A DNA stretch of 64,000 bases. It comes from Candidatus Eiseniibacteriota bacterium. Lineage in GTDB: Bacteria; Eisenbacteria; RBG-16-71-46; JABDJR01. The notes beneath the pieces were generated by a model. It saw only the letters and a list, made by a program, of their open reading frames with translations. It ran no database searches and had not been told where the DNA came from. Within the stretch, counting starts at the first letter, position 1. Each line of letters begins with the position of its first letter. Made by a program: the position numbers and the translations under genes. Shown piece by piece: positions 2,544 through 63,485 of this stretch. The DNA is taken from the NCBI GenBank assembly GCA_963783375.1, contig CAWANH010000029.1:448001-512000 (forward strand), given 5' to 3'.

Positions 2544-2696
2544 GCCATCCCCGGGGCTTTTTTCCCCCGAGGCGGGTGAAATACCCCTCGATTCAATCTG
2601 GCTTCCCGGGAACCCCCGGGACGGGAGTCCGGCTTCGAACCCCCATTTCTCGATGCCCGATGCGTTTGCGCGAGTCATCCGTGACGGCGCGTCGCA

Positions 2697-2712
2697 TGGC
2701 ACGGCGGTTGCA
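2697..2712 (+). promoter_or_regulatory. sigma54 (RpoN) -24/-12 promoter
   Basis: TGGCACG-GCGG-TTGCA matches the consensus TGGCACG-N4-TTGCW with correct GG/GC spacing, in an intergenic position. Confidence 0.75.
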
Positions 2713-2721
2713 ACTTATACG

Positions 2722-2887
2722 CGGTGGATGACGGAACGAAACCCGGGCCCCGACAAACCGGGTTCTTCCTGCGGTGTTTGTGATAGCTCGTGTTGAGAAG
2801 TTGATCCGCCAGAGTAAACGCCATTCACCGGGCACACGGCATCCGCGGGGAACGGGAGAGGCCGGCCGCAAGGTCGGTCTCTCCTTG
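2722..2887 (+). ncRNA. Putative sigma54-dependent structured small RNA (family unknown)
   Basis: Begins at the predicted sigma54 start site. Stem 2722-2733/2819-2830, inner hairpin AACCCGG/CCGGGTT, and a 3' 13-bp GNRA-capped hairpin. Confidence 0.5.
2855..2887 (+). terminator. Terminator-like hairpin
   Basis: GGAGAGGCCGGCC-GCAA-GGTCGGTCTCTCC forms 13 bp with 2 G.U pairs and a GNRA loop, followed by a weak TTGT tail. Confidence 0.5.
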
Positions 2888-2896
2888 TGCGACGGA

Positions 2897-2926
2897 TTGA
2901 CACCCCCTGATCCCGCCTGATACGTT
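2897..2926 (+). promoter_or_regulatory. sigma70-type promoter of sppA
   Basis: TTGACA-18 nt-TACGTT with an extended -10 TG. Confidence 0.5.
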
Positions 2927-2987: not shown

Positions 2988-3869
2988 ATGGCCAGTCGGA
3001 AAACAGGTCTCTTGCTCGGGTGTCTCCTCCTCGCGGCGATGGTCGTGATTGCGGTGGCGTCCCTGTCCATCTTCGTGGCCGGACCGTGGGTGGGAGGGAG
3101 CCTCCCGCTGATGGCCGGCGGAAAGGTGGGGCTGGTGGTGCTGGAAGGGCCGATCGGGCCGTCCCGCGCCCTGGTGCGGGAGTTGGACGCCAACCGGAAC
3201 GACGCCTCCATCAAGGCGGTGGTGTTGCGGGTGAACAGTCCCGGGGGTGAAGTCGCCCCGTCGCAGGAGATCCACGACGCCGTGCTCCGGCTGTCCCGGG
3301 AGAAGCCGGTGGTGGCCTCGTTCGGCTCGGTCGCCGCCTCCGGCGGCTACTACGCGGCGATTGCCGCTGATTCCATCCTTGCCGACCCCGGCACGCTCAC
3401 CGGGAGCATCGGCGTCATCTTCTCCTATCCCACCGTGGAGCGCCTGCTGGACAAGGCGGGGATCCAGTGGCAGGTCTACAAGAGCGGGGCGCTCAAGGAC
3501 ATGGGCACCTTCACGCGGGAACCGACCGAGGAGGAGGCGGCGGTTTTCGACGGGCTGGTGATGGACGTCTACGATCAGTTCGTGACCGCGGTGGCCGAGG
3601 ACCGGGAGTTGGACCGCGACCGCGTTCTCGCCATGGCCGACGGCCGGGTCTTCACCGGCCGCCAGGCCGTCGAACTGGGGCTGGTAGACGGGATCGGCGA
3701 CCTCCACGCCGCGGTCGGCATGGCGGCACGGATGGCCGGTCTGTCCGGGGAGCCGCAGGTGGTCCGGAAAACCCGTCCCCGTATTCCCATTCTCGACGTC
3801 CTCGACCAGTTCCTGGGCGACCACGCCCGTTCCGCCTCCTCGCCCCGCCTCGAGTACCGCTGGCGCTGA
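2988..3869 (+). CDS. sppA: Signal peptide peptidase SppA (S49, 36K type)
   Basis: N-terminal TM; motifs 'LRVNSPGG', 'KPVVAS.GSVAASGGYY', 'TGSIGV', 'KSG.LKD', 'DGRVFTG.QA..LGLVD.IG'. Confidence 0.93.
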   Translation: MASRKTGLLLGCLLLAAMVVIAVASLSIFVAGPWVGGSLPLMAGGKVGLVVLEGPIGPSRALVRELDANRNDASIKAVVLRVNSPGGEVAPSQEIHDAVLRLSREKPVVASFGSVAASGGYYAAIAADSILADPGTLTGSIGVIFSYPTVERLLDKAGIQWQVYKSGALKDMGTFTREPTEEEAAVFDGLVMDVYDQFVTAVAEDRELDRDRVLAMADGRVFTGRQAVELGLVDGIGDLHAAVGMAARMAGLSGEPQVVRKTRPRIPILDVLDQFLGDHARSASSPRLEYRWR

Positions 3870-3970: not shown

Positions 3971-4000
3971 TTGACAACCCACCGCATTTTGTGGTAGGGT
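3971..4000 (+). promoter_or_regulatory. sigma70-type promoter
   Basis: TTGACA-18 nt-TAGGGT with an extended TG. The predicted start (~4006) coincides with the 5' arm of a long RNA stem. Confidence 0.55.
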
Positions 4001-4185: not shown

Positions 4186-4235
4186 AGGGACCCGTCCCGC
4201 TGGGTCCCGGAGGTGAGGTGCCGGAGACGGTGATT

Positions 4236-4259
4236 GCCCCGCCCTCGCGTGGGGCTTTT
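4236..4259 (+). terminator. Intrinsic terminator-like hairpin upstream of the PilZ gene
   Basis: GCCCCGC-CCTCGC-GTGGGGC followed by TTTT. Confidence 0.45.
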
Positions 4260-4363
4260 CCATGGGGATGGAACTCTCCGGACGTTGCGGTGTATTTGTG
4301 GGCGATGGGCGTCCCCGGCCCGTCCCCGGTGGACACGCCATGTGGGCGGTGCGGAGGATTGAC

Positions 4364-4771
4364 ATGCCGAAGAAGGCAGTGAGGGAGCGGCGCAAGGCTC
4401 CTCGGATCGATTCGAGGCTCGCGCTGCAAGTTGAACGGGCGGTCAGAAGCAATACCGAGCGGCCGATGACCACGGAGAGCGTGAACGTCTCCAGCGGTGG
4501 CATCTGCTGCAACGTTCGTTCCTTTGTCGAGCCCCTGACCAAGGTGGGTCTGACCCTGCTACTGCCGTCCTTCGGCCGCAAGGGCAAGAAGACCCAGGTG
4601 GTTTCCTGCAACGGGGTCGTGGTGCGATGCCTGTCGTATCCTGCGGTCAGCGAGTTCGAGTTGGCCTGCGCCTTCACCGACATCAAGAAAGAGGACAAGA
4701 CCCTCATCGAGGAATACATCGGCTGGAGGCTGATGCAGGACCTCGTGGACGAGCGACTGTCCCAGCCTTGA
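4364..4771 (+). CDS. Stand-alone PilZ-domain protein (c-di-GMP receptor)
   Basis: Both PilZ motifs are present: RxxxR ('ERRKAPR') and (D/N)xSxxG ('NVSSGG'). SD GGAGG precedes ATG 4364. Confidence 0.85.
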   Translation: MPKKAVRERRKAPRIDSRLALQVERAVRSNTERPMTTESVNVSSGGICCNVRSFVEPLTKVGLTLLLPSFGRKGKKTQVVSCNGVVVRCLSYPAVSEFELACAFTDIKKEDKTLIEEYIGWRLMQDLVDERLSQP

Positions 4772-62057: not shown

Positions 62058-63485
62058 TCAGGCCACCTGGCGCCGTCCCGGCCGGTTCAGCCCGTAGAGC
62101 TTCATCCGGTAGCGCAGCTTGTCCCGCTTCAGGTGCAGGATGTCCGCGGTCCGGCTCTGGTTCCACGCGGTGGCGTCCGACGCCTTGACGATCAGGGCCT
62201 GCTCGATCTCGGCCAGGAGCTCCTCGAAGGGGATCCCGTCCGAGGGGATTCCGGGATCGTCCAGTAGCTGCTCCAGCCGGGCCACCGGAGAGTCGATCTC
62301 CCGGGTGGTGCGGCCGCTCCCGAGCTTCAGCATCTCCCCCTCGACCCGGTTCCCGTTCTCCAGAAGCACCGTCCGCTCCATCAGGTTCTTGAGCTCGCGG
62401 ATGTTCCCCGGCCAGGGATAGCCCATCAACTCCTGCTCGGCCTCGGGGCCGAACCCCTGGAAGCTCTTGTTGAACTGCTTGGAGAACGTGTACAGGAAGT
62501 GCTTGGCCAGGATGATGATGTCCTCCCGCCGTTCCCGGAGCGGGGGCACCCGCATCGGCACCACCTTGAGACGGTAGTAGAGATCCTCGCGGAAGCGCCC
62601 TTCCTCGCACATCTTCTGCAGATCCTGGTTGGTGGCGCTGATGATGCGCACGGAGACGTGGATGTCCTTGGTGCCACCCACCCGCTTGAAGGTCATGCGT
62701 TCGAGCACCCGGAGGAGCTTCACCTGGATCTGGAGGCTCATCTCCCCCACCTCATCCAGGAACAGCGTGCCTCCGTTGGCCATTTCCAGCAGCCCCTGCT
62801 TCTGGTTCCGGGCGTCGGTGAACGCACCCTTCTCGTGCCCGAACAGCTCGCTCTCCAGGAGCTCCCTGGGGATGGCCGCGCAGTTGATTTCCAGGAAGGG
62901 CTTGTCCCGTCGGACCGAGAGCTCGTGGATCATGTTGGCCAGGTGTTCCTTGCCCGTCCCGCTCTCCCCCTGGATGAGCACGCTGGTGGAGTCGGAGAGG
63001 GCCACCTGTTCGATGACGTCGTAGACCTCCTTCATGCGCGGGCTCTGGCCGCGAATGAAATCGCGGTTGAACCGGTCGGACTGCTGACGACGAAGGTGCT
63101 TGAGCTCCCGCCACAGCTTCCGGCTCTCCAGCGCCTTGTCCACGGTGATGAACAGTTGTTCCAGGTTGATCGGTTTGTTGATGTAGTCGTGGGCGCCGAG
63201 CTTCATGGCCCGGACCGCCGATTCCACGTCCCCGAAAGCGGTCATGATGATGACCTGGAGATCGGGATCGTCCTCCTTGAGCTTCTTCAGGACGTCGAGT
63301 CCGTGGGTGTCGGGCAGCCGAAGATCCAACAGCACCAGGTCGGGTTGGTTCTCGGCCACCTTGCTCAGGGCCTCGCGACCCTCGCCGGCGGTGCTTACCT
63401 GGTACCCCTCGTCCACCATGGCCTTCTCGATGAAGTGCCGGATGGATTCCTGGTCGTCCACGATGAGAATGTGTGCGTTGGTCAT
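62058..63485 (-). CDS. sigma54-dependent response regulator (NtrC/AtoC family)
   Basis: REC 'ILIVDD..PDLVLLD.RLP', AAA+ 'GESGTGKE', 'ESELFGHEKGAFTDA', 'LFLDE', 'WPGNIREL', Fis-type HTH. Confidence 0.95.
   Translation of the reverse strand: MTNAHILIVDDQESIRHFIEKAMVDEGYQVSTAGEGREALSKVAENQPDLVLLDLRLPDTHGLDVLKKLKEDDPDLQVIIMTAFGDVESAVRAMKLGAHDYINKPINLEQLFITVDKALESRKLWRELKHLRRQQSDRFNRDFIRGQSPRMKEVYDVIEQVALSDSTSVLIQGESGTGKEHLANMIHELSVRRDKPFLEINCAAIPRELLESELFGHEKGAFTDARNQKQGLLEMANGGTLFLDEVGEMSLQIQVKLLRVLERMTFKRVGGTKDIHVSVRIISATNQDLQKMCEEGRFREDLYYRLKVVPMRVPPLRERREDIIILAKHFLYTFSKQFNKSFQGFGPEAEQELMGYPWPGNIRELKNLMERTVLLENGNRVEGEMLKLGSGRTTREIDSPVARLEQLLDDPGIPSDGIPFEELLAEIEQALIVKASDATAWNQSRTADILHLKRDKLRYRMKLYGLNRPGRRQVA

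Follow-up and report, generated by a model that had tools for sequence, protein, structure and literature searches.

A putative half-length 6S RNA paralog with a sigma54-type promoter in Candidatus Eisenbacteria

The window analyzed here, a stretch of 64,000 nucleotides, carries a non-coding region upstream of sppA that opens with a sigma54-type box, TGGCACG-GCGG-TTGCA at 2697-2712 (Table 1). The strict form of this box occurs four times in the whole 4.73-Mb genome. A first-pass annotation had read it as a consensus sigma54 promoter with no substantial ORF behind it; the box recurs upstream in relatives, and the ORF check agreed. A coding role was rejected, as there is no conserved ORF and the homolog alignment contains 1-2-nt indels. 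The leader hairpin AACCCGG/CCGGGTT and the 13-bp, GCAA-capped terminal hairpin (with two G.U pairs) are present as described. No U-tract follows the terminal hairpin in the window and a terminator scan of the region returned none; the terminal hairpins of relatives carry pyrimidine tails. The separate sppA promoter that had been proposed was also recovered (TTGACA at 2897-2902, TG-n-TACGTT at 2918-2926), conserved and located after the hairpin. The start of the leader, GGUGGAU (2723-2729; GGCGGAU in relative G002), is complementary to AUCCGCC in the loop (2804-2810); this pairing is possible in a precursor, and no conservation of it was seen beyond the genus.

Table 1. Features of the window around the RNA locus, with the candidate regulator
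Feature	Position	Strand	Remarks
Upstream palindrome 1	2553..2566	.	consensus GGGGGAATTCCCCC; likely enhancer-binding-protein site
Upstream palindrome 2	2574..2587	.	21 bp past palindrome 1; likely enhancer-binding-protein site
sigma54 -24/-12 promoter motif	2697..2712	+	predicted +1 about 2723; based on sequence and relatives
Variable 5′ leader	2723..2765	+	hairpin 2740-2746/2758-2764; unconserved, about 2-148 nt in homologs
Conserved core, putative half-length 6S RNA paralog	2762..2855	+	88-107 nt in 52 aligned homologs
6S-type closing stem, 5′ strand	2766..2782	+	pairs with 2833-2851
Inner interrupted helix (6S P2 equivalent), 5′ strand	2786..2802	+	pairs with 2817-2833; predicted product-RNA template
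14-nt loop	2803..2816	+	opens with conserved GAUCC; in place of 6S central bubble and apical arm
Closing stem, 3′ strand	2833..2851	+	agrees with Rfam 6S consensus 3′ end
13-bp GCAA-capped hairpin, likely terminator	2855..2884	+	position kept among homologs, sequence variable
sppA sigma70-type promoter motif	2897..2926	+	TTGACA and extended -10; kept among homologs; separate unit
sppA (peptidase S49)	2988..3869	+	downstream neighbor in some families only
NtrC-type sigma54 activator, candidate regulator	62058..63485	-	single-copy in most of class; near-invariant DNA-recognition helix

The predicted fold of positions 2720-2895 (176 nt) modestly beats shuffled sequences (z = -1.76, with 9 of 200 shuffles equally good), and no family reached threshold when the region, the whole window and 10 homolog loci were scanned with Rfam. 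Because the single-sequence fold and the Rfam results are weak, the case for this RNA rests on comparison with relatives. Loci of sppA were taken from 40 relatives and the best 24 upstream regions were read. In 17 of these 24, the window genome included, a sigma54-type box is followed by a variable leader and then by a conserved block of ~90-105 nt that folds as a single interrupted rod; in relative G005 the box is cut off by the contig end. Conservation upstream of sppA in relatives had been set in advance as a check, and it bore out the promoter but not the main stem proposed by the first-pass annotation. That stem, CGGTGGATGACG (2722-2733) against CGCCATTCACCG (2819-2830), can indeed form 11 of 12 pairs with one G.U in the window, but a single change breaks the pairing in the closest relative and the other aligned homologs have no counterpart. 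In the window genome itself its probability is 0.24 or ~0 depending on the ends chosen for the transcript, against 0.43-0.75 for the rod 2766-2782/2833-2851. Similarly, the GCGG of the proposed GCGG/CCGC arm (2771-2774) pairs in the conserved fold with CCGC at 2843-2846 and not at 2806-2809, and of the ~165-nt structured RNA first envisaged only ~95 nt are conserved, with both leader and terminator varying.

The conserved rod is well supported across homologs, its closing stem having a probability above 0.8 in 65 of 78 homologous transcripts. Covariation was assessed on a sequence-only MAFFT alignment of 52 distinct homologs, with a 25-pair structure derived from those same sequences. In this alignment 90.1% of cells can pair, compared with 37-49% in slid controls, and two-sided changes occur in 15 of the 25 pairs, amounting to 120 cells compared with 44.9 in shuffles that ignore kinship. 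The closing stem is the best-conserved part, with invariant U.G and G-C pairs; because the U.G pair is found in all 52 homologs, the + strand is favored. The unpaired GAUCC of the loop is conserved at 90-96% per position, and the loop of some families is able to fold into a short hairpin of its own that leaves ~6 unpaired template bases. In three genomes the predicted +1 coincides with the start of the core, so the leader appears dispensable. Taken together, we regard a conserved non-coding RNA gene of 6S origin as almost certainly real.

The kinship with 6S RNA is read from several features. Both arms, UUCCUGCGGUGUUUGUGA on the 5′ side and CACACGGCAUCCGCGGGGAAC on the 3′ side, are almost identical in sequence to the Rfam 6S consensus. 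The 6S model RF00013 scores below cut-off at short-RNA loci (21-34 bits in 10 genomes of family f9, and likewise in G011) and gives no match to the window copy at E<=10, against a gathering threshold of 46.4 bits. Conversely, a model built from the short copies alone matches two of the six canonical 6S loci given to it (24-25 bits), including that of the window genome. When aligned to E. coli ssrS, the conserved GCUGAU falls on GCCGAU44, with window T2805 at U44, the position described as the E. coli product-RNA start (PMC8876501). The distance from the invariant closing-stem U to the loop U is 31-36 nt, as compared with 36 nt to U44 in E. coli and 35-38 nt in canonical copies of relatives, and at least 42 of the 52 homolog templates would yield a product beginning 5′-AUCA. 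What is kept is therefore the closing stem, with its conserved sequence and interruptions, together with P2 and the product-RNA start in register. What is lost is the apical '-35' arm and the 3′ '-10' bubble, ~90 nt being replaced by a loop of 13-24 nt, and the CACC...GGUUCAA block of canonical copies is missing. All 52 aligned homologs measure 88-107 nt, and neither the 6S apical stem nor the ~160-200-nt length is found in them; because three defining features that were tested are absent, the RNA was not filed under RF00013. On these alignments, the window RNA is a truncated 6S RNA paralog and not an unrelated new sRNA. The earlier suggestion of an undescribed family is thus right in that no Rfam family reaches threshold, and wrong in that a known RNA is its relative.

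The window genome also carries a canonical 6S RNA at C29:533224-533404 (80 bits in a local search), preceded by ORFs that we take from their translations to be zapA-like. The short RNA does not lie at this typical 6S position after zapA, which is occupied by the canonical copy. Full-length 6S above cut-off is found in 82 of 96 short-RNA genomes, a count made with a filtered whole-genome Rfam search that misses some canonical copies, for example that of the window genome. Other 6S-like loci were seen as well. Diverged second copies of full length (167-185 nt) occur at L062, L064, L065, L415 and L408; a sigma54 box lies 14-91 nt upstream of the first four, making such copies possible intermediates toward the short form. 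Further RNAs of 87-123 nt (L257, L258, L259, L260 as a second copy, L261, L262, L263, L264, L265 and L059) keep the 6S closing stem, differ in their inner parts and have no sigma54 box. The count of short copies without the box was eight. Some of these RNAs follow TTGACA-type promoters, and one stands in tandem with a sigma54 copy. This collection suggests that short 6S paralogs form a wider radiation.

The distribution of the RNA was surveyed with covariance models. A first model, trained on 18 sequences, found a match of ~100 nt in 96 of the 151 class genomes searched (one partial), including seven families absent from training. A refined model raised this to 112 of the 151 genomes in the draw from this uncultured phylum, mostly with one copy each. 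Among the matches, a weak second one (G092, L135) was dropped as spurious and that in G113 is partial. The refined model found none among the searched genomes of families f6, f7, f8, f11, f14, f15 and f16, although the f7 genome G014 has a divergent copy upstream of sppA nonetheless. A pattern scan of GTDB contigs gave at least 120 matches, each then scored with the model; among the matches listed, 46 pass, comprising every one of the 32 titled Ca. Eisenbacteria, 11 from unnamed bacteria and 3 under other titles. Samples of two other phyla, centered on Myxococcales and Geobacteraceae titles, gave 1 match in 101 genomes and 0 in 101 respectively, and the lone match looks like coding sequence and was set aside as a chance match. 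Five further single genomes had no copy, and none of 16 pattern matches in phage contigs passed the model. The genes downstream differ by family (sppA, an OPT transporter, BMC proteins, phosphofructokinase, a glycosyltransferase), from which we conclude that the RNA unit is free-standing. The first reading of the locus as a non-coding unit independent of sppA is borne out by the presence of both RNA gene and promoter in these other neighborhoods.

Evidence for sigma54 control comes from sequence upstream of the RNA. An independent set was assembled from 115 f10-type metagenome loci, on contigs of 1 kb or more, of which 95 were distinct; the other 20 were duplicates or lacked 200 nt of upstream sequence and were dropped. 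A strict sigma54 box occurs within 200 nt upstream in 86 of these 95 loci, compared with 0 of 95 on the opposite strand and 4 of 1900 shuffles, and no box is present at any of 21 canonical 6S loci. Among genome loci, a -24 GG / -12 GC box with 10-nt spacing is present in strict form in 46 of 68 and in a looser pattern in 67 of 68. Upstream of the box, at the ~80-220 bp expected of an activator site, the palindrome GGGGGAATTCCCCC is found in 61 of 78 training loci (55 of 1560 shuffles) and in 47 of 55 independent loci (23 of 1650 shuffles; 1 of 48 downstream controls). Its positions cluster ~11 bp apart, at -122 to -125, -132 to -136, -143 to -147, -162 to -164 and -174 to -178, and helical phasing is what a looping enhancer would give. 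Just 6 of 123 sigma54-like boxes in the window genome have the palindrome. A fixed pattern of palindrome plus box proved too strict as a search, reaching 5 places in 4 of 151 genomes. The sigma factor gene rpoN is present in 147 of the 151 genomes; one rpoN match, G038:C2:462746-464089, contains three in-frame TGA codons, which may reflect a frameshift or an error of assembly; the RNA is present in that genome. We consider it very likely that the RNA is under sigma54/enhancer control.

The regulator most likely to act at this promoter was sought among the 25 sigma54 activators of the window genome. These were compared with 70 activators extracted from six genomes that represent five families, 10-13 being taken of the 15-23 that each genome has. 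Two have reciprocal best matches in all six genomes, and one of the two is the ORF at 62058-63485, at 60-68% identity. The first-pass annotation had called this ORF an enhancer-binding protein, and it is indeed an NtrC-type activator. Its recognition helix, KRDKLRYRMK, is near-invariant; other activators have conserved helices too, and those at C29:174211 and C28:262018 are likewise conserved. Its C-terminal part has one match each in 122 of 151 genomes, including every RNA-bearing family, and it also occurs in families f14 (6 of 6) and f15 (12 of 13), where the RNA was not found. By these comparisons, this ORF is the best candidate regulator of the RNA.

Several other elements in the window and its genome were observed. 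In f9 loci, an AT-rich stretch ~60-110 bp upstream of the sigma54 box, between palindrome and promoter, resembles an IHF site. At C28:509466(-)/509770(+) of the window genome (L416), divergent sigma54 boxes share the same palindrome and lead to a receiver/HD-domain gene and to a gene for a 288-aa hypothetical protein. The latter has no Pfam or NCBIfam match, its Atlas clusters are unnamed, and its gene has the palindrome upstream in two relatives also; the L416 genes are likely co-regulated with the RNA. At C29:938075(+) (L417), a sigma54 box with the palindrome upstream precedes an ORF for a 56-aa lipoprotein-like peptide, and at C28:433051(+) a sigma54 box precedes a ~30-aa peptide ORF with repeated GAWEW units. 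After sppA, the window contains a conserved promoter-like motif, TTGACA...TGTGGTAGG (3971-4000), and a second conserved GC-rich non-coding block (4215-4360) upstream of a PilZ-domain ORF (4364-4771). Motif and block were seen in 6 of 7 aligned family loci, and an Rfam scan of this stretch gave no match; the block is possibly a structured leader.

6S RNA normally holds the housekeeping RNA polymerase idle. The prevailing view is that it depends on both arms as well as the central bubble for imitating an open promoter and selecting the housekeeping holoenzyme. For the window RNA, the reading we favor, and hold to be somewhat probable, is a signal-induced plug of the polymerase downstream channel and active site that is freed by product-RNA synthesis. 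An NtrC-type activator, with the ORF at 62058-63485 as best candidate, would bind GGGGGAATTCCCCC, loop to the sigma54 holoenzyme and fire the promoter at ~2723. The variable leader would be trimmed or ignored to give a ~95-nt rod, whose helix P2 would enter the beta/beta′ channel and place the unpaired GAU in the active site; polymerase would then copy a product RNA starting 5′-AUCA and let go. Overall, the RNA would act as a polymerase brake or store triggered by stress or development, apart from canonical 6S. A precedent for trimming the leader is the RNase J1 maturation of 6S-1 (PMC10578484). In 6S RNA, the sigma70 contacts are described as the apical arm and 3′ bubble and the beta/beta′ contacts as P2 (PMC8876501). 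With neither sigma70-contact element left, the likely target is the core enzyme, or holoenzymes without sigma selectivity, and since P2 and the start site are kept while the sigma contacts are dropped, binding is inferred to proceed via the downstream channel. Through a half-length 6S, one signaling pathway could then likely plug polymerase without the usual sigma70 contacts.

Published experiments bear on this proposal in different ways. B. subtilis 6S-1 shortened to 78 nt by a truncation that removes the -35 region is described as binding ~10-fold more weakly, making product RNA and being released (PMC8876501), a precedent qualified by the fact that the 78-mer retains the whole central bubble, which the window RNA does not have. 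For E. coli 6S, the same source describes trimming of the apical stem as abolishing gel-resolved binding, and 6S RNA is elsewhere stated not to bind core polymerase (PMC11077062). The terminal stem P1 is described as dispensable for binding (PMC8876501) but shows the highest conservation of any helix in the window RNA, pointing to a different binder or to a role in stability.

Alternative explanations weigh different parts of this evidence. The conservation of the closing stem would suit a decoy for a closing-stem factor, either an RNase or an RNA-binding protein, by which the level or activity of canonical 6S is tuned. Conservation is highest in this stem even though P1 is reported to be unnecessary for polymerase binding, the other 87-123-nt copies share mainly this stem while their inner parts are unrelated, and the short RNA co-occurs with canonical 6S. 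A decoy leaves unexplained, however, why an unpaired GAUCC is so conserved at the exact product-RNA start, and we judge it unlikely. The loop could instead be the functional part of an old 6S copy reused as the scaffold of a base-pairing sRNA. Sigma54-driven sRNAs of this type, such as Qrr, exist, and the loop (GAUCCGCC here, GAUCCCC elsewhere) is single-stranded, C-rich, invariant within families and might pair with G-rich ribosome-binding regions. Matches of 8 nt complementary to the loop occur 63 times at 4573 crudely called starts in the window genome, as against 7-51 in base shuffles, but this apparent enrichment is gone when compared with in-gene (72, 73) and antisense (64) controls. Moreover, the nucleotide at the fourth position of the loop may be G, C, A or U, and in no case does it complete a true UCCUCC anti-Shine-Dalgarno, so that this role seems improbable, more so than the decoy.

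The position of the RNA upstream of sppA in 17 of the 24 sppA loci read could also indicate a cis-acting leader or attenuator of that gene, or a functionless remnant of a 6S duplication. Against this, other families have other downstream genes, and a conserved promoter past the hairpin belongs to sppA itself; compensatory changes, the kept sigma54 box and the phased palindrome across 11 families argue for selection, making either version very unlikely. Lowest of all we place an RNA of ~165 nt from a new and unrelated family, with 2722-2733/2819-2830 as its closing stem. That stem exists in the window genome and fits a near-optimal fold with a 5′ end at 2722, but it is unconserved, pairing of leader to inner core exceeds a probability of 0.5 in only 3 of 78 homologs and the 6S homology is clear; we give this reading next to no weight.

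The polymerase-plug reading has a stronger form, which we advance tentatively and hold to be less probable than the plug as such: a natural minimal inhibitor of ~95 nt, derived from 6S by loss of both sigma70-recognition elements, that binds core (or any) polymerase through the downstream duplex and active-site template alone, and that is switched on by a dedicated sigma54 enhancer pathway, thereby shifting polymerase between sigma factors. If true, the 6S lineage would gain its first sigma54-controlled member, which would also be its smallest, within a radiation of 87-185-nt paralogs in one phylum. A phylum-wide, natural downstream half of 6S, with the product-RNA start under selection, makes it possible to test which parts are enough for binding and release, and also what sets sigma selectivity. 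It also connects a 6S-type RNA with sigma54 control in response to a signal, for which an activator site is predicted and an activator put forward as a candidate. Our search of the open literature found no natural half-length or sigma54-driven 6S RNA and no paper combining '6S RNA' and 'Eisenbacteria'. Since Rfam misses this short-RNA family, similar short paralogs may be overlooked elsewhere.

Qrr, CrcZ, GlmY and Pxr are sigma54-dependent sRNAs that need an enhancer-binding protein. The window RNA has its promoter type in common with them, but no Rfam match to any, and its scaffold derives from 6S. With 6S/SsrS RNA of the E. coli type (RF00013) it shares the sequence and fold of the closing stem, P2 and the GAU in U44 register; it differs in its shorter length (6S is given as 160-200 nt in PMC8414754), in lacking the '-35' arm and 3′ '-10' bubble, in scoring below the gathering threshold and in being a stand-alone sigma54 unit outside the zapA-type locus, where the window genome has its canonical copy. 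Second 6S copies, such as 6S-1/6S-2 of B. subtilis and those of other Firmicutes, are likewise paralogs beside a canonical 6S under separate control, but those known are described as full length and binding the sigmaA holoenzyme, while the window RNA is of half length. The engineered 6S78 and 6S82cp, derived from B. subtilis 6S-1, are similar in size, lack the -35 region and cycle on polymerase in vitro (PMC8876501). They are artificial, with the central bubble kept and both arms shortened (PMC8876501), whereas the window RNA retains its closing arm in full and has lost the 3′ part of the bubble and the apical arm. Ms1 and CoRP, described as actinobacterial RNAs of about 300 and 516 nt (PMC11077062), have no Rfam match that ties them to the window RNA, but they bind core polymerase without primary sigma (PMC11077062) and so offer the closest functional model for the target proposed here.
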